NCBI GenBank assembly: GCA_964494945.1 | Contig: CAZBTX010000005.1 | Span: 1 to 57,437 of the forward strand | Source of the DNA: an uncultured Candidatus Saccharibacteria bacterium | Lineage (GTDB): Bacteria > Patescibacteriota > Minisyncoccia > Sungbacterales > JACQCQ01 | Direction: 5' to 3' | Length of the DNA stretch: 57,437 nucleotides | Shown: positions 13 through 57,437 of the stretch, piece after piece | Numbering within the stretch: position 1 is the first letter of the stretch | How the letters are laid out: the number at the start of each line of letters is the position of its first letter | The notes under the pieces: generated by a model | Seen by the model: only the letters and a program-made list of their open reading frames with translations | What the model was told of the DNA's origin: nothing | The model's database searches: none | Made by a program: the position numbers and the translations under genes

Positions 13-55
13 TTTATTCGTTAACTAACTCTAAAATTTAGAGAATACTGGCATG
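13..55 (+). repeat. Partial third copy of the repeat's 3' end, forming the rplF leader
   Basis: TTTATTCGTTAACTAACTCTAAAATTTAGAGAATACTGGCATG is identical to 1169-1211. Confidence 0.93.
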
Positions 56-598
56 AGCCGCATTGGGAAACAACCAATTCAAATACCGAACGCTGTTTCC
101 GTTTCTTTGGAGGGAAATTTGGTTTATATCAAAGGGCCCAAAGGAGAAATTACGAGGGCTTTTCCTTCTGAAATTAACGTTAGCGTGAAAGACGGGATTA
201 TTACGGTTTCGCCCGCGCGTGAGACCAAGAGAACCAAAGCGCTTTGGGGCTTGACACGGGCAATCTTGGCGCATTCTGTTTTAGGCGTTTCTCAAGGATT
301 TGAAAAGAAGTTGGAACTTGAAGGAGTGGGATACCGCGTGAATTTAGACGGCAAAGACCTAGTACTGCTTTTGGGATTTTCCCATCCCGTGCGTTTTCAG
401 GCACCCCTAGGCGTTGATTTTAAAGTTGAAAAGAATACCATTACGGTTTCCGGCTTTGATAAAGAATTGGTCGGCGAGACGGCCGCCAAAATAAGGGCTC
501 TTAAAAAACCCGAGCCCTACAAGGGCAAGGGCATAAAATATCAGGGAGAAGTTATACGAAGAAAAGCGGGCAAGAAGGTTACAGCTACTGTTACCTAA
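53..598 (+). CDS. rplF: 50S ribosomal protein L6
   Basis: MSRIGKQPI N-terminus and PEPYKGKGIKY C-terminal motif; spc operon position. Confidence 0.98.
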   Translation: MSRIGKQPIQIPNAVSVSLEGNLVYIKGPKGEITRAFPSEINVSVKDGIITVSPARETKRTKALWGLTRAILAHSVLGVSQGFEKKLELEGVGYRVNLDGKDLVLLLGFSHPVRFQAPLGVDFKVEKNTITVSGFDKELVGETAAKIRALKKPEPYKGKGIKYQGEVIRRKAGKKVTATVT

Positions 599-613
599 AG
601 ATCATATAAAATT

Positions 614-982
614 GTGGAAATTACCGTTAGGAGAAAACGAGAAAAACAAAGTATACGGGCGCGCCGAACGCGGGCTCGCATTCGCACGCATACTGAAACA
701 CCCCGTCTTTCCGTATTTAGGTCGGGCAAGCATATTTATGCCCAAATTATTGATGACCGGGCGAGTAAAACGCTGGTTTCAGCCCATGATATCGTAAAAA
801 ATAAAGGCAAAAAGGAAACCAAGACCCCATTAGGGGCCGCGGTATCGGTGGGAACGGCCATTGCCAAGAGAGCGTTAGAGAAAAAAATTAAAAAAGTGTC
901 TTTTGACCGCGGCGGATACAAGTATCACGGCAGGGTCAAGGCCTTGGCCGAAGCGGCGAGAAAAGCGGGATTACAGTTTTAA
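614..982 (+). CDS. rplR: 50S ribosomal protein L18 (GTG start)
   Basis: [18 protein letters not shown] and [20 protein letters not shown] motifs. Confidence 0.98.
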
Positions 983-1206
983 AGGGCTTTGTCTAAAATT
1001 ATGAGCGAAGCGAAATCAATTTTAGGAACAAAACCTTTATCCCGTTAGAAATTAACACTAGAGTCAATATGCAAAATATCCGCGACAAGCAGAATATAGA
1101 CGAAGCCAAAGGAGCGTTAGGTCATCTAGCGTTAATTTCTAACGGGATGCTCAGTATTCAACCTAAATTTTATTCGTTAACTAACTCTAAAATTTAGAGA
1201 ATACTG
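980..1206. repeat. spc-operon intergenic repeat copy 1 (186 bp, 1021-1206, identical to 2176-2361); contains an 18-bp inverted repeat at 1039-1056/1131-1148
   Basis: Direct comparison; arms ATCCCGTTAGAAATTAAC / GTTAATTTCTAACGGGAT; the 5' part TAAAGGGCTTTGTCTAAA is also shared. Confidence 0.95.
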
Positions 1207-1208
1207 GC

Positions 1209-1700
1209 ATGGCACGACCACCACGAGGCGGTATGAGACGCGGCAGATTTCCGAAAGAAAGATCGGAATTCGACCAAAAAACTTTGGATATTAGGCGTGT
1301 AGCACGCGTGGTGAAAGGCGGGCGGCGTTTTAGTTTTCGCACCACCATTGTTTTGGGCAACAGAAAAGGCAAAGTGGCGGTGGGACTCGGTAAAGGGGCG
1401 GATGTGGCGCTTTCCATTGATAAGGCCGTGGCCAACGGCAAAAAGAACATGATTTTCGTACCCACCACGAAGAGCGGCAGTATTGCGCACGATGTTTCGG
1501 CAAAATACGGGAGTGCCATGGTACTACTGCGTCCGGCCGCCGATGGTCGCGGTCTAATCGCCGGCGGGCCAGTTCGGGTCGTGGCATCTTTGGCCGGTAT
1601 TCAAAATCTTACATCTAAGATTTTATCCCGAAGCTCCAATAAACTTAATAACGCGAGAGCCACTATTGAGGCCTTGAAAAAGTTAAAACAAAACTCTTAA
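1209..1700 (+). CDS. rpsE: 30S ribosomal protein S5
   Basis: RRVARVVKGGRRFSFR and GLIAGGPVR motifs. Confidence 0.98.
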   Translation: MARPPRGGMRRGRFPKERSEFDQKTLDIRRVARVVKGGRRFSFRTTIVLGNRKGKVAVGLGKGADVALSIDKAVANGKKNMIFVPTTKSGSIAHDVSAKYGSAMVLLRPAADGRGLIAGGPVRVVASLAGIQNLTSKILSRSSNKLNNARATIEALKKLKQNS

Positions 1701-1704
1701 AACC

Positions 1705-2136
1705 ATGCAGCTTCATACTTTAAAGTCGAATACCAAAATGCGTAGAGGCCAAAGGATAGGCCGCGGCGGAAAACGCGGCACTACTTCCGGTCGGGGCACT
1801 AAGGGCCAGAAGTCCAGAGCGGGACATAAAATTCGTCCGCAAATCCGCGAGATAATAAAGCGTATTCCCAAGCTTCGCGGCTATAAGTTCCGGTCGTTCC
1901 GCAAGCAGGCCGTGTCGGTCTCACTTGCAACTCTTGAGAAGAATTTTTCAAAAGGCGATAGGATATCCGCGAGGGCGCTAATGGAGCGCGGAATAGTTAA
2001 AAATGCCGGAGGTATTAAACCGCGCATTAAGATTCTTGGTTCTGGACCCGTTAGCAAAAGTTTTTCCATTGTAGGTCTTGAAATGTCCCGTGGGGCTCGG
2101 GCGGCAATTGAGAAAGCCGGGGGCAGCATTAAGTAA
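1705..2136 (+). CDS. rplO: 50S ribosomal protein L15
   Basis: RIGRGGKRGTTSGRGTKGQKSRAG motif; directly follows rpsE with no rpmD. Confidence 0.97.
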   Translation: MQLHTLKSNTKMRRGQRIGRGGKRGTTSGRGTKGQKSRAGHKIRPQIREIIKRIPKLRGYKFRSFRKQAVSVSLATLEKNFSKGDRISARALMERGIVKNAGGIKPRIKILGSGPVSKSFSIVGLEMSRGARAAIEKAGGSIK

Positions 2137-2361
2137 AGGGCTTTGTCTAAATTTTGGAGCCGTGAAGCGACAAAATTTAGGAACAAAACCTTTATCCCGT
2201 TAGAAATTAACACTAGAGTCAATATGCAAAATATCCGCGACAAGCAGAATATAGACGAAGCCAAAGGAGCGTTAGGTCATCTAGCGTTAATTTCTAACGG
2301 GATGCTCAGTATTCAACCTAAATTTTATTCGTTAACTAACTCTAAAATTTAGAGAATACTG
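2134..2361. repeat. spc-operon intergenic repeat copy 2
   Basis: 2176-2361 is identical to 1021-1206. Confidence 0.95.
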
Positions 2362-2363
2362 TC

Positions 2364-3629
2364 ATGTTCCAGAAACTTCGCTTACTCGTTACTTCTCCAG
2401 AACTTCGGAATAAGTTCTTATTTGTAATAGGGGCTCTGGCAGTATTTAGATTATTCGCGGCCATTCCGGTGCCGGGGGTGAACGCCGAGCGTCTCAAAGG
2501 ATTTTTGGAGGGCAATCAGTTCTTCGGGCTTTTGAATATATTTTCCGGCGGGGCGCTTTCCAATCTGTCTATCGTAATGTTGGGGGTGGGACCTTATATC
2601 ACCGGCTCCATCATCATGCAGCTTTTGACCATGATATTTCCGCGTTTAAAGGAAATGTATCAGGAAGAAGGCGAGGCGGGGCGCCGACGCTTTAACCAGT
2701 ATTCCAGGATTCTTACTGTGCCCTTGGCCATTTTACAGTCATACTCGCTGCTTATCCTTTTGATAAAACAGCAAGTAATTGGTCAATTGACGCCTTTTGG
2801 ATTCGCCACGAATATCTCGGTGATTACGGCGGGGACTTTAGTATTAATGTGGCTGGGAGAACTGATAACCGAAAAAGGGATAGGCAACGGCATCTCACTT
2901 TTGATATTTGCCGGCATTGTTTCCAGATTCCCTACTGATATCCGGCAAGCCCTCATAACTTTTGATGTTTCTCAATCGCCGACTTACCTCATATTTATTA
3001 TCGTCGCGCTTTTGGTTATTGCGGGCGTCGTGATCGTTAGTGAAGGGCAAAGAAACGTTCCGGTCTCTTATGCTAAACGTATTCGCGGCATGCGGGTATA
3101 TGGCGGCGTTTCCACGCACCTACCTTTAAGAGTTAACCAGGCCGGCGTTATTCCCATTATATTTGCCATTTCTATAGTGCTTTTTCCGGGGCTTATCGGA
3201 AATGTTTTGGCGGCCGTCCCGCAGTCATGGGCGCAAACGGCCTCGCAATTTTTAATTTCGGCTTTTAATAACACCTGGGTATACGGCTCCGTGTATTTCT
3301 TGCTGGTTTTTGCTTTCACTTATGTTTACACGGCCATTACTTTTGACCCGCAGTCCATTGCCGACAACATCCAAAAACAGGGCGGATTCATTTTGGGGAT
3401 TCGCCCGGGGCGCCCCACGGCGGAGTATTTGACCTCCATTCTTTCCCGCATCACTTTGGCCGGGGCTTTGTTCCTAGGCGTGATTGCTGTTTTGCCTCTG
3501 ATTGCGCAAGGCGTTCTGAAAATCAACGCTTTCACGCTGGGCGGCACGGCGCTTTTGATAGTGGTTTCGGTGGTGCTTGAGACCATGAAGCAGATAAATT
3601 CGCAGCTTGTAATGAGAGAATATGATTAG
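2364..3629 (+). CDS. secY: Preprotein translocase subunit SecY
   Basis: LGVGPYITGSIIMQLL, GIGNGISLLIFAGI, IRPGRPTAEYL and GGTALLIVV motifs; about 10 TM segments. Confidence 0.98.
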   Translation: MFQKLRLLVTSPELRNKFLFVIGALAVFRLFAAIPVPGVNAERLKGFLEGNQFFGLLNIFSGGALSNLSIVMLGVGPYITGSIIMQLLTMIFPRLKEMYQEEGEAGRRRFNQYSRILTVPLAILQSYSLLILLIKQQVIGQLTPFGFATNISVITAGTLVLMWLGELITEKGIGNGISLLIFAGIVSRFPTDIRQALITFDVSQSPTYLIFIIVALLVIAGVVIVSEGQRNVPVSYAKRIRGMRVYGGVSTHLPLRVNQAGVIPIIFAISIVLFPGLIGNVLAAVPQSWAQTASQFLISAFNNTWVYGSVYFLLVFAFTYVYTAITFDPQSIADNIQKQGGFILGIRPGRPTAEYLTSILSRITLAGALFLGVIAVLPLIAQGVLKINAFTLGGTALLIVVSVVLETMKQINSQLVMREYD

Positions 3630-14243: not shown

Positions 14244-14366
14244 CCCCGTTAGAGGTCCGATTTGCCTGCAAATTGGCGGCAATCTTAAGTCGGTTTTCTG
14301 ATAAAATGGCGTTTAGCCATGCTAAGGGTATTATGGCACTAAAGCGATTGCCTACCCCTAACGGGG
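14244..14366. repeat. CCCCGTTAG...CTAACGGGG element
   Basis: TTGACCCCGTTAGAGG at the left end and CCCCTAACGGGGTTTGAC at the right end. Confidence 0.85.
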
Positions 14367-26578: not shown

Positions 26579-26674
26579 TATCAATTGTATTTATTAAATT
26601 AACTCACTCGCCCGGCCGCAAAACTTTTCTAATCAATCATTTCAATCATTCTTAGTTAGTTATTATTGATCATT

Positions 26675-26694
26675 TACATAATTTATTCCTATAG
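26675..26694. promoter_or_regulatory. 20-bp site upstream of the PaaX-like gene (direct repeat of 27270-27289)
   Basis: TACATAATTTATTCCTATAG abutting a TAAAAT -10-like box. Confidence 0.75.
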
Positions 26695-26711
26695 TAAAAT
26701 AATATGTATAT

Positions 26712-27269
26712 ATGAAAAAACTGCGACGGTTGGGGAGTGTGCAACGCGGGATTATGCAGCTTTTGGATCAAGTTGGAGCGATGAGTTTTGTGTTACTAAC
26801 TTCTGGAAAACACGCTAAAACTATTCTACGGAATTATCATCAACGTTCGCACGAGCGAGTTATTAGCTCTTTGGAGTCATTGAAACGTCGTCGGCTGATT
26901 AATATCGCGGATGACGGAACGGAAACCCTTATAACTCTAACACGTGATGGCAAACGCGAGTTGCTTCGTTACGGTTTAAATACCATGGTGCTCTCGCGTA
27001 AACAAAATTGGGATGGTGTGTGGCATATGGTAATTTTTGATATTCCAGAGCGGTATGGGAAAGCGCGACGCGCGCTGTCTTTCAAAATTCAATCTATTGG
27101 AGCATTTCGTTTGCAGGATAGCGTGTATGTGTATCCATTTTCTTGGCAGAATGAAATTGATTTCTTGAGTGAGTTTTTTCATGTAAGTCCGTTCATCCGA
27201 TACATTAAAGCCAGTTTTGTGGAAGGAGAAGAAGATCTTTTGCGGCGCTTCTCTTTGCATAAACGATAA
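26712..27269 (+). CDS. PaaX-like regulator (wHTH plus Cas2/ferredoxin-like domain), CPR family
   Basis: SLESLKRRRLI..ITLTRDGK wHTH; WDGVWHMVIFDIPE..RALSFKIQSIGAFRLQDSVYV. Confidence 0.82.
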   Translation: MKKLRRLGSVQRGIMQLLDQVGAMSFVLLTSGKHAKTILRNYHQRSHERVISSLESLKRRRLINIADDGTETLITLTRDGKRELLRYGLNTMVLSRKQNWDGVWHMVIFDIPERYGKARRALSFKIQSIGAFRLQDSVYVYPFSWQNEIDFLSEFFHVSPFIRYIKASFVEGEEDLLRRFSLHKR

Positions 27270-27303
27270 TACATAATTTATTCCTATAGGAATAAATTAT
27301 GTA
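27270..27303. repeat. 34-bp perfect palindrome directly after the PaaX-like stop codon
   Basis: TACATAATTTATTCCTATAGGAATAAATTATGTA equals its own reverse complement. Confidence 0.92.
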
Positions 27304-27343
27304 AGAATCTCTGCTATGCAGAAATCCCTGCATTGCCGCGGAT

Positions 27344-31361: not shown

Positions 31362-31411
31362 AGCGGGGTATAATTTTAGAATAGATTAGCTCAGCTTGCC
31401 CCGCCACCTCT

Positions 31412-31483
31412 GGGCGTGTAGCTCAGTGGTAGAGCGCGTCACTGATAATGACGAGGTCCCAGGTTCAATCCCTGGCACGCCCA
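31412..31483 (+). tRNA. tRNA-Ile(GAU), CCA not encoded
   Basis: Acceptor GGGCGTG/CACGCCC, D arm, anticodon arm CGTCA-CTGATAA-TGACG, T arm CCAGG-TTCAATC-CCTGG. Confidence 0.95.
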
Positions 31484-31506
31484 CCCAGAGGTGGCGGGGT
31501 GAAGTA

Positions 31507-31562
31507 GGGCGGTCCGATGTCCATCGGACAGGTCGGAAGTTCGATCCTTCCGTCGCCCACCA
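31507..31562 (+). pseudogene. Truncated tRNA-like element (acceptor stem, T arm, CCA)
   Basis: GGGCGGT/GTCGCCC-A-CCA; T arm GGAAG-TTCGATC-CTTCC; D and anticodon arms replaced by one hairpin GTCCGAT-GTCC-ATCGGAC. Confidence 0.75.
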
Positions 31563-31640
31563 GATGGAACTTTCCCGATTTTTGCCCGCTCGCCGGAAAG
31601 TGATTGCAGAAGAACGAAAAAAGAGCTATTAATATCTGCA

Positions 31641-34370: not shown

Positions 34371-34476
34371 ACCCGTTAGAAAATTTATGGCAGGATTTAT
34401 ATCTGGTTAAAGCTCTAGATTTTAAATCCGGAGGACTTAACCTTTTTGAGCCCCTAGTTAAATTTTCTAATTGGGT
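34371..34476. repeat. Degenerate CCCGTTAGAAATT element in the helicase leader
   Basis: ACCCGTTAGAAATTTA ... TAAATTTTCTAATTGGGT. Confidence 0.7.
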
Positions 34477-36550: not shown

Positions 36551-39500
36551 ATGGAATCCGAACATTATCAATTGGTAGACATCATCAAAAGAACCGGTCG
36601 TCCCAAGACGACCCTTTTGCGTTGGGAGCGGGAAGGCAAAATTCCCGTGGGACAGAGAGACGTACACGGATGGAGATATTACACGCGTGGCGAATTTGAA
36701 ATGATAATCCAATTTGCCGAGCGAATGCAGAAAAATATTTTTACTTACATCCCGAGGCATACTCGCATGGTCGCACAGGACTCCGCGCCCAAACAAAAAA
36801 AGATTTTCAACACGGTGCTGGCGCGTCTCGGTATCCGGATGTTCCTTACGATATTAATTTTCGTGGCTATTGCGGCACCCCTTAGTTTATCCGCGACCGC
36901 GGGTGTCCCGAGTGTTATAAATTATCAGGGACGACTTTTGAATTCCAGTAGTAGTCTCCTGGGCGGCGCCGGAACCAATTACTGCTTTAAATTTTCGATT
37001 TACGACAATCCGACAGTTGATTTAGGAACGAAGCTCTGGCCCTCGGGTTCACCCGCCACTACCACCATCAGCGTCAAAGAGGGCGTTTTCAACGCGGCCA
37101 TCGGCGCGGGCGACGACGCCTTGACTTATGATTTCAAACAAAACAACACGATCTATTTGAACGTTGAGGTGGGAAGTCAGGTAAGCGGATCGTGCGCCTC
37201 GGCTTCGTTTGAAAATCTTAGCCCGCGGCAAAGGATAGTTTCATCCGGTTACGCCATCACTGCCGGTTCTGTTTTTGGCACGGCGCAGTCCGCCGTTGGC
37301 ACTACTTCACTTATTGCCAGCACTTCTCTAACCGTAGAAGCTACTTCCACGTCCGTCATTCCTTTGACACTTCGCGGATTCGCCAATCAATTGGCCGATC
37401 TCTTCCGCATTGTAACCGCGGCCGGTTCTCAACTTTTGACGTTCACGAGCGGAGGATATTTAGGCATCGCGACATCTTCCCCGTCGGAGGCCTTGTCGGT
37501 CGCAGGAAATCAATATGTTACGGGGACCGGACTTTTTGGCGGCGCTTTGAGTGCTGGTACCATCCTCCTTAATGGTTCTTCTACTTTCCAAAACTTCACC
37601 TTCATAAATGCCACGGGTACGGCGGCTACCACGACCTCTTTGACTGTCACGGGCTATGCTTCCACCTCGGCTTTGACGGTGTCCAACTTGAACGCCGCCA
37701 GCTGCGACGTCAAATCCAGCATCACTGGCGTGCTTTCCTGCGGCACGGACGCCGCAGGCGGCGGCACCGGTTCCAACTGGTCCTTCTACTCCCAGTTCGT
37801 TATCACGCCTTCCACTACTCCCATCGGCGTCATCGTTTCGGCCGCCTCCTCCACCATTCCCGGTCTTAGCATGACTTTTTCCACGACGACATATGCCACC
37901 ACCACGTCCCTGGCTGTTACCGGCGCGGCTTCCACTTCTGTTCTCACTGTATCTAACGATGCCACTCTCATGGGCGGCCTCACTCTCACCTGCACCGACT
38001 GCCTCACCGACACCAACGTGGCCAACGGTCTCACCATCTCCGGCGGCAGTATCAACTCCACCCCCATCGGGGCCTCCACCGCCAGCACCGGCGTCTTCTC
38101 CAACGCCACTTCCACCAACTTCTACATCTCCGGGAACTTCCTATCAGGTGCCGCCTCTTCCACCATTACTTTCCTGCAGACATCTTTCTCCACCACCACC
38201 GCTGCCACCACCACGTCCCTGGCGGTGACGGGCTATGCTTCCACCTCGGCTTTGACGGTGTCCAACTTGAACGCCGCCAGCTGCGACGTCAAATCCAGCA
38301 TCACTGGCGTGCTTTCCTGCGGCACGGACGCCGCAGGCGGCGGCACCGGTTCCAACTGGTCCTTCTACTCCCAGTTCGTTATCACGCCTTCCACTACTCC
38401 CATCGGCGTCATCGTTTCGGCCGCCTCCTCCACCATTCCCGGTCTTAGCATGACTTTTTCCACGACGACATATGCCACCACCACGTCCCTGGCTGTTACC
38501 GGCGCGGCTTCCACTTCTGTTCTCACTGTCTCGGGCGCCTCCATCCTTAACGGCAATGTCACCCTGGGCCAGTCCAAGTTACAGACCCTAACCTTAAATG
38601 CCGGACGGCTGGACTTCATCAATGCCGCCACCTCCACCGTCATCAATGACATCGCCACCGCCTGGAGCATCGCCACTTCCACTACCGACATCACTCCCAT
38701 ACTTGTCATCTCCACTGCGTCCACCACGCCCGCCGGCGAGGGAGCGGTGGGCATCGGTACCTCATCTCCGGTCCAGCACCTCTCGGTCTCGGGCAACGCG
38801 TACTTCACCGGAGGCCTGGGAGTGGGAGCAGCCACCAGTACCAACGGCAACTTCCAGCTAACTGGGGACGCTCAAATCGGGACCGCTCTCTCGGTGGGAG
38901 GCATCGCTTCCTTCGGAAACACCATCACCGGCACCGTCTTGAACAGCACCACCGGTATCAACACGGGAGCGGGCGCCGGCACCCAAAGGATTGACTCCTC
39001 CGGCAATCTTTCCAGCATCGGCACCATCAGCGCCTCGGGCCTGGCCACTCTCTCGGGCGGCATTCTCGCCAACTACGCTTCTTCCACCATTCGGGGACTA
39101 TTCGTGGACATGGGGACGACGACATACGCCACTTCCACTTCTCTGGCGGTCACGGGATACGCCTCCACTTCGGCCTTGACGGTGTCTAACCTCAGCACGC
39201 TCATGGGCGGCATCCTTTCTAACTACGCCTCCTCCACCATTCGGGGACTATTCGTGGATATGGGCACCACCACCTACGCCACCTCAACCTCTCTTGCCGT
39301 TACCGGAGCCGCTTCTACTTCAGCGCTTACGGTTTCCAACACATCCATTCTTAACGGCAACGTAACTCTCGGCGCCACTTCGGCGCAGACGTTGACGGCG
39401 AACGCTTCTTCCACTTTTGCCAATAGTGTTGCTCTCAACGGGGATATTGCCATGGGGAATGCCATTGGAGACCGCATTTCCATCAGCGCCGGACTCGTAA

Positions 39501-41470
39501 ATTACGGAAATAATTCCACTACCACGATCCCTAATAACTTCGTCAACGCCTGGAGCATAGCGACTTCCACGGGCGTTATGCCGATTCTTTCAGTGAGCAC
39601 CTTTAGCGGCACGGGCCTTGCCAGTTCCACCAGTCCCGGCCGCATCGGAATTGGCACGACCACGCCCGAAGCTCGTCTTTCCATTGACAGCCGGACGGCC
39701 TCGGACGTCGGTATCGCGGGAATTCATGAGGTCTTGACGATACAACCGACGGCTGGCGGCACGCAGTTCGGCAATCGCTTGGTCGTGGTGAATAGTTCTC
39801 AATTCTCGGCCAATACCATGGTGGGGCAATTCATCCGCGTGGTTGATGATTCAGGCCTGGCTAATACCGTAAGAGGTCTGGAGATACAATCCAATAGCGG
39901 CACCACCACTCTAGGTGTTAACACCGGCCTTTACGCCCAGGGAAAAACTTTCGGCGTCCAAGGCATTTCCACCGGTGTCGCCGGTGGCTCGCTCATTCCA
40001 GCGGAGGTCTATGCTGAAATCCAGGAGCCCACGCAGGGGCAAGCCCTCCGCGTTTACACCGCGACCACCACCACTTCGGACTTAGCGCTCTTTTTCCAGG
40101 AAGGGTCGCAAACATTCTCGGGCACGGGGCTTAAGATGAACTTCCATAAAGGCGCGGGAACGTTCACGGGCAACTTCCTGGACTTGCAGGATAACGACAC
40201 TTCCAAGTTCCGCGTTACCGCATCGGGCAATCTGGAGATCGGCAACGGCAGTATCTGCGTGGACTCCGACGGCAGCTGCACCGCCTCCACTTCGGGCGGC
40301 GCCATTTCAGCCAATCGCTACAACACCGGTTCGGCCGACATTGCGGAAAATTATTTCTCAAATTCTTTGCTGGAGAAGGGCGACATTGTGAGTACCAAAG
40401 GCGGCCTCATGGTGGATAAGGCAGAAAATTCAACCGACCCCATCATCGGCGTTGTTTCAACCAAACCCGGTATTGTTCTGGGAGAAGACGAGGACGTAAC
40501 CGTTCCCGGGGCCAGCGCATATCCCATAGCGCTGGCGGGGCGGGTCCCCGTGAAGGTGTCCGATGAGAACGGGACAATAAAGATAGGCGACAAGCTCCAG
40601 CTCTCGTCACTCACGGGCATCGGCATGAAATACTTGGCTTCTTCCACGGGGGTTACCGTTATCGGCGTGGCCTTGGAGGACTTTGACGGAACGAATTATC
40701 TTTCTGAAGTCACGGTAAAGGTGGAAACCGAAAAGAAGATCTTGATAACTGAAGAAATGGTGCCATCCGACGACACCCAGGATTACAGCGGTGGTGAAGG
40801 CGGCACCAGCGACCAAAACGCGGGAGCGCTGATAGAGAAAAAATCGGTGGCGCGGCTCGCCGCTTCCACCACGATTGAGAAAATCTTCATGCCCCCCGCG
40901 AATTCTCCGGCCCAAGATGCCAATATCTCGCCTGGACGCACGGTTAAGGTCGGAAAAGTCATGGTTTTCGTAACACTCGGCTGGTCGCGACTGGACGAAA
41001 GGATTTCGCAACTTGCGACAAGTGGCACGGGGCAAGTGGCAACGAACGGTTGGAGCGTGGATCAGTCCACTGGCAAGGTGAATGTCAATTTCTACGGGGA
41101 TGTAAGTTTATCCGGCAACAACCTTATAAATGTAAAGAAGATCGTGGGCGCGGACGCCAAGTTTGTTTTGGATGAGACCGGTAAGCTTGTCGTAAAAGAA
41201 ATTGAAGCCGATGCGGTTAGAACGAAAAAACTGGAAATAGGGGATACGGCGACACCGGCGGGTATCATCCTCTATGACCAGATAACCAAAGAGCCGTACT
41301 GTGTTTCAATCGCGAACGGCGAATTCGTAAAAGTCGCGGGCGTTTGCGGTGCTGTTTTAAGTCCACCGCCCGCGCTGGAGCCGCCCCCCGCCGAGCCAAG
41401 CGGGACAGAAACCCCGCTCGTTTCCGAGCCGACTTCTGGGGTCACAACTGAACCGGCAAGTGCGCCATAA
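36551..41470 (+). CDS. Giant Ser/Thr-rich surface fibre protein with N-terminal MerR-type HTH and a C-terminal autoproteolytic-chaperone-like domain
   Basis: IIKRTGRPKTTLLRWEREGKIP..HGWRYY; hydrophobic segment at about aa 97-117; ATTTS/ASST repeats; SADIAENY..IGVVSTKPG..IALAGRVPVKV..IKIGDKL. Confidence 0.8.
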   Translation: MESEHYQLVDIIKRTGRPKTTLLRWEREGKIPVGQRDVHGWRYYTRGEFEMIIQFAERMQKNIFTYIPRHTRMVAQDSAPKQKKIFNTVLARLGIRMFLTILIFVAIAAPLSLSATAGVPSVINYQGRLLNSSSSLLGGAGTNYCFKFSIYDNPTVDLGTKLWPSGSPATTTISVKEGVFNAAIGAGDDALTYDFKQNNTIYLNVEVGSQVSGSCASASFENLSPRQRIVSSGYAITAGSVFGTAQSAVGTTSLIASTSLTVEATSTSVIPLTLRGFANQLADLFRIVTAAGSQLLTFTSGGYLGIATSSPSEALSVAGNQYVTGTGLFGGALSAGTILLNGSSTFQNFTFINATGTAATTTSLTVTGYASTSALTVSNLNAASCDVKSSITGVLSCGTDAAGGGTGSNWSFYSQFVITPSTTPIGVIVSAASSTIPGLSMTFSTTTYATTTSLAVTGAASTSVLTVSNDATLMGGLTLTCTDCLTDTNVANGLTISGGSINSTPIGASTASTGVFSNATSTNFYISGNFLSGAASSTITFLQTSFSTTTAATTTSLAVTGYASTSALTVSNLNAASCDVKSSITGVLSCGTDAAGGGTGSNWSFYSQFVITPSTTPIGVIVSAASSTIPGLSMTFSTTTYATTTSLAVTGAASTSVLTVSGASILNGNVTLGQSKLQTLTLNAGRLDFINAATSTVINDIATAWSIATSTTDITPILVISTASTTPAGEGAVGIGTSSPVQHLSVSGNAYFTGGLGVGAATSTNGNFQLTGDAQIGTALSVGGIASFGNTITGTVLNSTTGINTGAGAGTQRIDSSGNLSSIGTISASGLATLSGGILANYASSTIRGLFVDMGTTTYATSTSLAVTGYASTSALTVSNLSTLMGGILSNYASSTIRGLFVDMGTTTYATSTSLAVTGAASTSALTVSNTSILNGNVTLGATSAQTLTANASSTFANSVALNGDIAMGNAIGDRISISAGLVNYGNNSTTTIPNNFVNAWSIATSTGVMPILSVSTFSGTGLASSTSPGRIGIGTTTPEARLSIDSRTASDVGIAGIHEVLTIQPTAGGTQFGNRLVVVNSSQFSANTMVGQFIRVVDDSGLANTVRGLEIQSNSGTTTLGVNTGLYAQGKTFGVQGISTGVAGGSLIPAEVYAEIQEPTQGQALRVYTATTTTSDLALFFQEGSQTFSGTGLKMNFHKGAGTFTGNFLDLQDNDTSKFRVTASGNLEIGNGSICVDSDGSCTASTSGGAISANRYNTGSADIAENYFSNSLLEKGDIVSTKGGLMVDKAENSTDPIIGVVSTKPGIVLGEDEDVTVPGASAYPIALAGRVPVKVSDENGTIKIGDKLQLSSLTGIGMKYLASSTGVTVIGVALEDFDGTNYLSEVTVKVETEKKILITEEMVPSDDTQDYSGGEGGTSDQNAGALIEKKSVARLAASTTIEKIFMPPANSPAQDANISPGRTVKVGKVMVFVTLGWSRLDERISQLATSGTGQVATNGWSVDQSTGKVNVNFYGDVSLSGNNLINVKKIVGADAKFVLDETGKLVVKEIEADAVRTKKLEIGDTATPAGIILYDQITKEPYCVSIANGEFVKVAGVCGAVLSPPPALEPPPAEPSGTETPLVSEPTSGVTTEPASAP
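37649..38529 (+). repeat. 302-bp identical intragenic direct repeat (37649-37950 and 38228-38529)
   Basis: Direct comparison; period 579 bp = 193 aa. Confidence 0.92.
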
Positions 41471-57150: not shown

Positions 57151-57437
57151 GTTGACCCCGTTAGAAGCAGGTCGCGATCAGATTAACTTTTTTCTATACA
57201 ACATCTTAAATGAAACATTGTTTGTATGCTGTTAAAGAAACTACCGCGATCGCGGCTTCTAACGGGGTTGACCCCGTTAGAGACCCGCATAGAATCATGT
57301 CTAATTCCATGACAAGCCGAAACAAAAAACCACCCTTGATCGTTGTTAACTTCCAGAAATGCGGAACGTCGCATTTCTTGTCTCTAACGGGGTTGACCCC
57401 GTTAGAGACCCGCATAGAATCATGTCTAATTCCATGA
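57151..57437. repeat. Head-to-tail array of GTTGACCCCGTTAGA...TCTAACGGG units
   Basis: Units start at 57151, 57267 and 57392; junctions form TCTAACGGGG-TTGA-CCCCGTTAGA; 57383-57437 duplicates 57258-57312. Confidence 0.92.

Follow-up and report, generated by a model that had tools for sequence, protein, structure and literature searches.

Several families of short, gene-less elements with inverted ends are known to occur in many copies in bacteria, among them the Correia/NEMIS elements of Neisseria, ERIC and RUP. Miniature elements of the Correia type (MITEs) are often co-transcribed with their neighbors and form long hairpins which RNase III can cut. The Correia elements carry their own conserved 26-bp ends, duplicate a TA and land generally in intergenic regions, and we know of no nuclease-bearing form linked to elements of this type. 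The cassette described here is also short, gene-less, multi-copy and provided with inverted ends; unlike the Correia elements, it lies flush with a stop and a start codon, and the two have no sequence likeness. The IS200/IS605 elements and the miniature PATEs have hairpins at both ends and a fixed orientation to a short target, and IS200/IS605 elements are moved by the HUH (Y1) transposase TnpA through a single-strand DNA mechanism. The cassette resembles them in its end hairpins, its fixed orientation and the lack of an evident target duplication, and a single-strand mechanism would fit a hairpin-dependent recognition. No TnpA was noticed here, however, and the only element-borne protein found for the cassette family is a GIY-YIG nuclease. 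The Rickettsia palindromic elements (RPEs) insert in frame within coding sequences and are translated, and to our knowledge they have no nuclease partner. They resemble the cassette as selfish palindromic repeats that are tolerated inside essential genes or operons of a reduced genome, but the cassette is located between a stop and a start codon.

The Ssn nucleases and their NTS/SRM hairpin repeats were described by Chenal et al. (2025, Nat Commun, PMC11893778), who noted that the repeat-gene-repeat layout resembles an insertion sequence. The IS200/IS605 family and its miniature forms are discussed in that paper too, and Patescibacteria are absent from it (PMC11893778).

Two copies of a 227-bp cassette in the spc operon

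The stretch of DNA analysed here (the window) is a whole contig of 57,437 nt which starts inside a leader repeat. The following features were located in it.

13..55, + strand: partial hairpin X, the 3′ 43 nt to the rplF start codon, 100% identical to 1169-1211
53..982, + strand: rplF (53-598) and rplR (614-982), a tight pair with a 15-nt gap (ORFs, tblastn)
980..1038, + strand: copy A, rplR stop codon TAA and hairpin hp1, AGGGCTTTG...CAAAACCTTT (fold)
1039..1148, + strand: copy A, element Y, palindrome ATCCCGTTAGAAATTAAC...GTTAATTTCTAACGGGAT (fold, inverted repeat)
1147..1211, + strand: copy A, hairpin X, ATGC-T-CAGTATTC...GAATACTG-GCATG (covariance model R1)
1209..2136, + strand: rpsE (1209-1700) and rplO (1705-2136), 4-nt gap, rpmD absent between them (ORFs, tblastn)
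2134..2193, + strand: copy B, rplO stop codon and hp1 (fold, alignment)
2194..2303, + strand: copy B, element Y, identical to the Y of copy A (repeat search, alignment)
2302..2366, + strand: copy B, hairpin X with the start codon of secY (2364-2366) at its end (R1)
2364..3629, + strand: secY, then terminator-like hairpins (ORFs, tblastn)
14245..14366, + strand: solo Y-type element with CCCGTTAGA...CTAACGGG ends and flanking TTTGAC direct repeats
34372..34474, + strand: solo Y-type element, CCCGTTAGAAAATTT...AAATTTTCTAATTGGG
57157..57437, + strand: tandem Y-type elements, two and a half, with GTTGAC between; the contig end falls inside the third

Global alignment showed that the rplR-rpsE gap (983-1208) and the rplO-secY gap (2137-2363), each about 227 nt long, are homologous from stop codon to start codon. 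A repeat search aligned 1018-1211 with 2173-2366 (194 nt, 99% identity). These stretches differ in one base, a G/T mismatch three bases 5′ of the ATG (T at 2361 in copy B), which breaks one pair of hairpin X in copy B, and all other differences between the gaps are confined to the hp1 tip, within about 25 nt (~998-1020). The last 43 nt form a leader that is present at 13-55, 1169-1211 and 2324-2366, and the 22-mer CTCTAAAATTTAGAGAATACTG occurs three times against 0.00 expected by chance. The partial X before rplF is without its 5′ arm and has AGGGTGTGGGGG upstream, at the contig start. In all, two full and at least two partial copies were found. The preliminary description had reported an identical 186-bp block in the two gaps, its last nucleotides also before rplF, and a shared leader without a canonical Shine-Dalgarno. 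The block was confirmed at the length and with the one mismatch given above, its 43-nt end does precede rplF, and the start codons of rplF, rpsE and secY are indeed supplied by the module. The leader has no AGGAGG-like Shine-Dalgarno, and neither have the tight rplF-rplR and rpsE-rplO junctions. The duplication or gene conversion it had considered was also borne out, the blocks being recent copies of one module.

Both gaps are occupied, exactly from stop to start codon, by one copy each of a palindromic DNA cassette that has no gene and is composed of hp1 (left), Y (center) and X (right). The basal stem of hp1 includes the upstream stop codon, which in copy A pairs with a 3′ UUA. Y is a palindrome of the form ATCCCG...CGGGAT, with an 18-bp perfect stem, 5 further pairs and no gene in copy A. 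The AT/AT flanking Y belong to the stem, and another genome (L096) has AC/GT instead, a compensatory change. X, which is the "shared leader", ends in ...TGGCATG and regenerates the downstream ATG in its basal stem, where the A and the U of the rpsE start codon (1209-1211) are paired. The hp1 tip of copy B differs from that of copy A, and the stem is kept through compensatory changes. When the reverse complement of copy B hp1 was aligned with the X core, the score was 40, compared to 18.2 ± 3.6 for shuffles, indicating that hp1 is an inverted relative of the X core and that the pair serves as the terminal inverted repeats of the frame. The two cassette copies have minimum free energies of -70.6 and -74.5 kcal/mol, with z-scores of -7.1 and -7.7. 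Covariance model R1 scored 53.5 bits (E 2e-12) on the X of copy A and 43.8 bits on that of copy B, and the X stem is 98% paired with 6 pairs changed on both sides, a value reached by 0 of 500 shuffles.

The junctions were checked in the Logan contigs of four public groundwater runs. These contigs link rplR through the hp1 of copy A into the block (505-1050), the block end through rpsE, rplO and the hp1 of copy B into the block again (1184-2205), and the block end with the T variant to secY (2332-2543). At the rplF leader junction a 77-nt contig extends 35 nt past the first base of the window. Relative to unique sequence, the shared block, which is assembled as a single contig, has about 2x the depth and the leader core about 3.5x, and no contig skipping a block was found in the four runs. 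Since the window is a short-read metagenome contig beginning inside the repeat, and de Bruijn graphs collapse repeat interiors, one repeat copy might have been placed twice or two copies made identical by the assembler. Such an artefact is highly improbable, because each copy has its own entry (hp1-A after rplR, hp1-B after rplO) and its own exit (G variant into rpsE, T variant into secY) in the contigs of the four runs, the block is at double depth with no block-free joint, and the gene order agrees with all relatives. The junctions are supported by these independent contigs. Logan contigs break at repeats, and a whole copy is spanned by one contig in run X3 alone (633-1198). The identity inside the repeat may be overstated by de Bruijn assembly. 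A concerted change of the two copies is suggested by position 1081/2236, which is C in both window copies and A in the collapsed double-depth contig of runs X1 and X4. In the reads, the leader was also observed before a fourth gene, the product of which begins MPKQTGEFGRN.

The cassette family in other CPR genomes

A search with the family pattern ATCCCG-N-CGGGATGCTCA-N-TGGCATG returned 44 metagenome loci. About 36 of them are AT-rich true copies with inverted ends, and the other GC-rich loci without inverted ends (about 8) are approximately as many as estimated for chance. Of the 49 X hairpins found with the covariance model, 42 close on an ATG that opens an ORF of 50 codons or more, and the final ATG of another three belongs to a real gene that is short or broken (rpmJ or a broken rplN). 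The three-hairpin layout was found at the start codons of dozens of unrelated CPR genes, including mreB, mraZ, hypA, hypC, nrdR, smc and secG. The hp1 frame follows a stop codon in at least ten cassettes of other genomes, and in L095, L096, L104, L108 and L126 hp1 is directly 3′ of the stop codon. At secY the X family was seen in only one (L015) of 59 CPR secY loci. No published description of such elements in CPR bacteria was found in the literature. Judged by these sequences, the cassette appears to be a small three-hairpin mobile DNA that is common in the ultra-small (CPR) bacteria.

Three Sungbacteria, roughly equidistant at 74-76% identity over five proteins, were compared. In one relative (L129) the cassette is absent from every junction from rpsH to secY, with gaps of 19, 6, 5, 5 and 25 nt, and these gaps are tight in most CPR relatives as well. 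Because L129 has none in rpsH-secY, the cassette is dispensable. The other relative (L126) has inserts at ten junctions, one of which contains the hp1 and X frame of the window with a different Y. The other suggestion of the preliminary description, a translation-initiation, protein-binding or processing signal specific to the operon, did not hold, given the dozens of unrelated CPR genes, the nuclease-bearing form described below, the empty junctions of L129 and the lack of Rfam matches.

The sequence comparisons also indicate that the Y hairpin is an element in its own right which can be exchanged. In the window, 11 occurrences of CCCGTTAGA were counted compared to 0.41 expected, and solo Y elements with the same CCCGTTAGA ends and unrelated interiors were found in the window, L010 and L033. 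Direct repeats of 5-6 nt (GTTGAC, TTTGAC, ATGAT) lie beside the solo Y elements, whereas no flanking target-site duplication is evident for the whole cassette. A cassette frame without Y, in which hp1 is joined directly to X, was not found at any of the loci searched.

A nuclease-bearing form and the probable origin of the copies

In one locus of the family (L095), the order is groEL stop codon, hp1, CCCGCCCTCT, a 72-aa ORF, AGAGGGCGGG, X and the ATG of rpsP. The ORF is located inside Y and matches the Pfam GIY-YIG family (E 1.5e-11), and gene-less copies on the same contig have the same CCCGCCCT ends as the nuclease-bearing form. This small GIY-YIG gene is thus placed between hairpin repeats, hp1 to its left and X to its right. 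The Ssn nucleases are likewise very small single-domain GIY-YIG proteins (94 aa in Neisseria versus 72 aa in L095), with inverted repeats that form hairpins on either side of the gene and numerous copies without a gene across the genome (PMC11893778). The differences are that SRM repeats are 20-50 nt long, compared to 227 nt for the cassette, and that neither start or stop codon placement nor a three-hairpin cassette was reported for them (PMC11893778). Neither strand of the 57-kb window contains the published SRM motif HGTCWY...RNCYNB (0 matches). As expected for a MITE, the cassette is 227 nt long (less than about 500 bp), contains no gene and has inverted ends, and it occurs in several copies per genome and is variably present among relatives, with L129 empty and other sites filled in L126.

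We propose as the probable reading that the cassettes are miniature mobile elements linked to a nuclease, and that recent copying or gene conversion has kept them alike. In the autonomous relatives, Y would hold the gene of the 72-residue GIY-YIG nuclease. The nuclease would act on hairpin or single-stranded DNA, most likely starting the copying or gene conversion of the cassette, and the gene-less copies may be served in trans by a nuclease encoded elsewhere in the genome. Recent copying, or nuclease-triggered conversion between copies, would have produced both spc copies as well as the partial ones before rplF and the fourth gene, and would account for their near identity. Its restoration of both codons, stop and start, is presumably why the cassette persists in an essential operon. 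Once transcribed, the three compact hairpins may leave both codons few unpaired bases apart, so that downstream translation continues. Several points count against the proposal or limit it. No nuclease gene was found in the 57,437-nt window, the link of the CCCGTTAGA-type Y to a nuclease comes from another subfamily (L095), and we know of no GIY-YIG nuclease that is a transposase. The whole cassette lacks a clear target-site duplication, and a recent transposition of the complete unit does not by itself account for the hp1 tip, which differs between otherwise identical copies.

Should the link to the nuclease prove correct, the CPR bacteria would possess a mobile element of very small size that rebuilds both codons and targets the stop-start junction, the only site of a compact genome at which an insert is harmless. 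This would explain many unexplained intergenic blocks and contig breaks in the genome bins of CPR bacteria. It would offer a naturally occurring case in which to study how translation begins 3′ of long folded inserts in organisms that make weak use of Shine-Dalgarno sequences, and would widen the biology of the hairpin-specific (Ssn-like) GIY-YIG nucleases, which are under development as single-strand DNA tools.

Possible roles of the cassette for the host

The cassette may also be used by the host, as it is strictly in sense orientation and fits exactly from stop to start codon. A ribosomal-protein autoregulatory operator before the three genes, for instance an rRNA mimic that binds S8 or an L protein, might be expected of a strong structure within the spc operon. 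This explanation is scarcely credible, as the same hairpin precedes non-ribosomal genes in other genomes and is absent in relatives. A search of the gaps against Rfam 15, which contains ribosomal-protein leaders, gave no match at E up to 5; at the gathering scores, a tRNA was the only hit in the whole window. The leader might instead be an outward-facing promoter for leaderless mRNAs, giving each gene pair its own transcript with GAGAAT as the -10 box. GAGAAT ends 7 nt before the A of the ATG, a spacing which fits a transcript start at that A, and the leader has no Shine-Dalgarno. The promoter was rejected as improbable, because a consensus scan of the leader reported nothing promoter-like and the family does not keep the -10-like sequence: in its place the stem reads variously CAAAAT, AAAAAT or ATAAAAC, 3-4 nt from the ATG, so that the pairing is conserved and a -10 box is not.

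A host-selected intercistronic RNA device has somewhat more in its favor. The stop and start codons, located at adjacent helix bases, could couple downstream translation to upstream termination, or cleavage of the 18-23-bp stem by RNase III could divide the operon mRNA into rplF-rplR, rpsE-rplO and secY units. The cassette spans exactly from stop to start with both codons paired in basal stems, in all cases it lies in sense orientation with X adjoining the ATG, and it recurs in the ribosomal-protein operons of several CPR genomes. Several other copies have a good Shine-Dalgarno at a normal distance from the left edge of the insert, and the hairpins would therefore need to return it to the ATG. 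G-U pairs are also slightly more common in the sense fold of the whole Y+X (143/1847) than in the antisense fold (90/1699). This excess is weak and was not taken as evidence of RNA function, and the comparison of sense and antisense folding was set aside as a test of RNA selection; the antisense strand of the window copy folds better than the sense strand (-65.4 versus -57.5). Since nearly all pairs of the verified stems are Watson-Crick (G-U in 2 of 495 cells in X, and 5 G:T versus 414 Watson-Crick at the Y ends), nothing points to selection on RNA. Moreover, L129 and most CPR relatives do without the cassette, Y is exchangeable and its ends recur outside gene junctions, and the substitutions in the short upstream frame between the window and L126 are mostly amino-acid-altering. 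An RNA device of this kind is hence considered unlikely.

A joint reading, which we offer tentatively and regard as doubtful, would combine a new class of mobile DNA bearing a lone GIY-YIG nuclease of about 70-100 residues with a cassette that works as a portable translational coupler. The mobile part, about 350 bp with end hairpins, would undercut every insertion sequence known to us. The three hairpins would keep the upstream stop and the downstream start codon at adjacent helix bases, and a terminating ribosome could restart across 226 folded nt. Such a coupler, if real, would be the bacterial analogue of ribosome shunting, and would account for the tolerance of such inserts between essential genes.

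Reading frames within the inserts were also inspected. The 42-codon frame at 1069-1197 was rejected as a gene, since it has no Pfam match and the part common to L126 differs mostly non-synonymously. The short ORFs of 97 and 50 residues in such gaps of L126 are probably spurious annotation.

Structure of the repeated spc-operon gaps

The repeated feature at the window start is real. It probably represents a miniature, nuclease-associated palindromic mobile cassette, present in two recent copies at stop-start junctions. The genes concerned and the hairpins of the first copy are as follows.

Genes of the spc ribosomal operon and cassette hairpins (copy A)
53-598, rplF
614-982, rplR
983-1038, hp1, left hairpin: conserved frame AGGGCTTTG...CAAAACCTTT, tip variable
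1039-1148, Y, central palindrome ATCCCGTTAGAAATTAAC...GTTAATTTCTAACGGGAT
1147-1211, X, right hairpin: ATGC-T-CAGTATTC ... GAATACTG-GCATG
1209-1700, rpsE
1705-2136, rplO
2364-3629, secY

The rplF-rplR and rpsE-rplO gaps are 15 nt and 4 nt, and those of rplR-rpsE (copy A) and rplO-secY (copy B) are 226 nt and 227 nt, respectively. A repeat search of the window returned a 194-nt pair of 99% identity (1018-1211 and 2173-2366) and a 43-nt leader at three places (13-55, 1169-1211 and 2324-2366), of which one 22-mer occurs three times against an expectation of 0. Global alignment showed homology along both long gaps, from the stop codon through to the start codon. The gaps differ by a single G/T three bases 5' of the ATG, and all other differences are confined to the first hairpin's tip, over some 25 nt. 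The preliminary description of a repeated block in two spc gaps with a common leader was borne out.

The gaps folded at -70.6 and -74.5 kcal/mol (z = -7.1 and -7.7 relative to shuffled sequence), each with three predicted hairpins. In the predicted fold of every example, the upstream stop UAA pairs with a 3' UUA in the basal stem of hp1. Within X, the first two bases of the start codon (A and U) are base-paired. The AT/AT flanking Y is part of its stem, and one copy at L096, a locus compared from outside the window, has the compensatory AC...GT. The right-end hairpin of the cassette is X, and its 3' half constitutes the leader. The reverse complement of hp1 from copy B aligned to the X core with a score of 40 (shuffles 18.2 ± 3.6), and thus hp1 and X behave as inverted frame ends with Y in the centre.

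Assembly and likeness of the two copies

The window is an entire contig whose start lies inside the leader repeat, and assemblers do break in this way at multi-copy repeats. The stretch is present in four public groundwater runs, in each of which contigs were built independently. These contigs connect rplR through hp1 of copy A to the block interior (505-1050), the block end through rpsE, rplO and hp1 of copy B to the block again (1184-2205), and the T-variant block end to secY (2332-2543). The entries and exits of both blocks were supported, and no contig of the four runs skipped a block. The common block formed a single contig with roughly double the unique depth, and the leader core reached about 3.5 times the unique depth, with a fourth gene, beginning ATGCCAAAACAAACC..., also downstream of the leader. 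It is highly improbable that an assembly artefact made the repeated blocks.

Strain variants in the Logan contigs of these runs (X1-X4) were concentrated in the cassette, at window 998 and 1081-1082, and no such variants were found in the flanking genes. A minor fraction carried an inserted T at the hp1 tip of copy A (998), and run X2 had two alternative alleles at 1081/1082.

Copies A and B lie 1155 bp apart in direct orientation with two essential genes between them, so that crossing-over between them would be lethal and homogenisation could proceed only via copying or gene conversion. The earlier proposal of duplication or gene conversion was upheld. Both window copies have C at position 1081/2236, where the double-depth collapsed contig of runs X1 and X4 has A, a state that fits concerted change and that assembler collapse could mimic. 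Two copies at another locus (L104) likewise have identical Y and X and a differing hp1 tip, as in the window. Several hp1 tips carry GAGCGAAGCGA, containing GCGAAGC, which is a very stable DNA mini-hairpin.

Distribution and turnover in CPR genomes

Among the genomes of the species collection, the closest (L001, 72% SecY identity) was without such blocks at these junctions, and in most CPR relatives the genes there are 0-30 nt apart. Closer relatives were reached via RpsE homologues. Three Sungbacteria are roughly equidistant from one another, with 74-76% identity over five proteins.

Junctions in three Sungbacteria
L129, rpsH to secY: gaps of 19, 6, 5, 5 and 25 nt
Window, rpsH to secY: two full cassettes and one partial
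L126, rpsC to secY: inserts at ten junctions

The rpsN-rpsH gap of L126 has the same hp1 as the window, an almost identical X core and a different Y, and its rpsH-rplF gap holds a stacked hp1-Y-hp1-Y-X (L126:3679-4700). Solo Y-type elements with the same CCCGTTAGA ends and unrelated interiors were found at window 14245, 34372, 57157 and 57273 and in other genomes. This distribution is a pattern of insertion and turnover and not an inherited operon signal; an operon-specific regulatory site, as previously suggested, was not supported, and the repeat may yet act as a processing site. A called 97-residue ORF without family spans the L126 stack and a called 50-residue ORF lies in its rplR-rpsE cassette; both are probably spurious. 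At window 57157-57437, Y-type elements with CCCGTTAGA stand in tandem with GTTGAC between each; the third is cut off by the contig end, so that repeat families lie at either end of the contig.

At a Moranbacteria locus (L015), ATCCCG...CGGGATGCTCA...TGGCATG was found upstream of secY, and its X stem has three compensatory changes. This layout was converted to a pattern, and scanning the metagenome collection gave 44 loci, about 36 of which were AT-rich with true inverted ends; the other 8 or so, about the number estimated for chance, were GC-rich without inverted ends. A covariance model of X matched 47 times in the loci and twice in the window. In 42 of these 49 matches, the terminal ATG opens an ORF of 50 codons or more; three others terminate on rpmJ or a broken rplN. 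The genes downstream are highly diverse, including ribosomal genes (rpsH, rplF, rplN, rplO, rplQ, rpsC, rpsG, rpsP, rpmG, rpmJ) and others such as secY, secG, mreB, mraZ, hypA, hypC, nrdR and smc. Cassettes that also have hp1 occur at L095, L096, L104, L108 and L126, and hp1 always follows a stop codon immediately.

X covaried strongly: 98.2% of the alignment cells were paired, six pairs changed on both sides, and none of 500 shuffles attained the observed value. The stem changes were nearly all Watson-Crick to Watson-Crick, with G-U in 2 of 495 cells. The Y ends gave 414 Watson-Crick pairs, 5 G:T and 2 A:C, and hp1 had 8 G-U among 268 predicted pairs. Whole-element folds showed only a small sense-strand excess of G-U, and the window copy folded better in antisense than in sense. 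A palindrome maintained as DNA fully accounts for these data; selection on RNA is not required, and an effect on RNA may still occur.

Nuclease-bearing forms and other repeats

At L095 the order is groEL stop codon, hp1, AT, CCCGCCCTCT, a 72-codon ORF, AGAGGGCGGG, X and the rpsP ATG. The ORF matched Pfam GIY-YIG (E = 1.5e-11), and copies without the gene on the same contig have the same CCCGCCCT ends. A small GIY-YIG gene between inverted repeats also stands at a start codon in L017. In a Moranbacteria bin (L007:12440-12760), a 16S rRNA gene is interrupted, some 60 nt in, by a GIY-YIG ORF of roughly 80 codons with TCGCACCTTTCA...TGAAAGGTGCGA as its bounding inverted repeat. No small GIY-YIG gene bounded by inverted repeats was found within the 57,437-nt window. 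We consider the chances evenly balanced that a GIY-YIG nuclease moves or homogenises the cassette.

Ssn proteins are GIY-YIG nucleases of 94 residues; they cleave single-stranded DNA next to hairpin repeats, which flank the nuclease's own gene and are also scattered genome-wide (PMC11893778). That paper makes no mention of Patescibacteria or of start codons. This family is the nearest published analogue that we found for the cassette, and the published SRM motif had no match in the window. Our literature searches returned no account of stop-to-start cassettes in CPR. Some behaviours of the cassette are also seen in Correia-type MITEs, IS200/IS605 miniature elements and Rickettsia palindromic elements; to our knowledge, these elements differ from it in sequence, target and partner enzyme.

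Other repeats were observed as well. In a Patescibacteria bin (L029:3955-5991), homologous modules of 166-194 nt occupy the rplF-rplR, rplR-rpsE, rpsE-rplO and rplO-secY junctions; they belong to a different sequence family with a CCCCGTGGAGTAG...CTACTCCACAGGG core, each finishing ...ATTACTAAC-ATG, and are alike in behaviour but unrelated in sequence to the window cassette. Three different CPR genomes (L013:1539-2267, L025:5865-5988 and L126:6866-6976) have spc-operon junctions filled by another palindromic family, built from ACGAATATAC/GTATATTCGT-like units. In the window, the arms of an inverted repeat, CCCGCCACCTCTGGG...CCCAGAGGTGGCGGG, lie on either side of a complete tRNA-Ile(GAT) at 31411-31487. 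One flank shows an apparent 5' part (TAGCTCAGCTTG) of another tRNA-like gene and the opposite flank an apparent 3' part (...GGTTCGATCC-like arm, ...GCCCACCA), and the unit (within 31380-31565) looks like a tRNA-carrying Y-type hairpin element inserted within a tRNA gene. Long imperfect direct repeats at 37600-39600 (300 nt at 97%; 145-nt units at 61-79%) seem to lie inside a large repetitive coding region. At 26674-27304, an AT-rich inverted repeat of 36 nt (TTACATAATTTATTCCTATAG...), with arms 559 nt apart and 89% complementary, belongs to a different repeat family.
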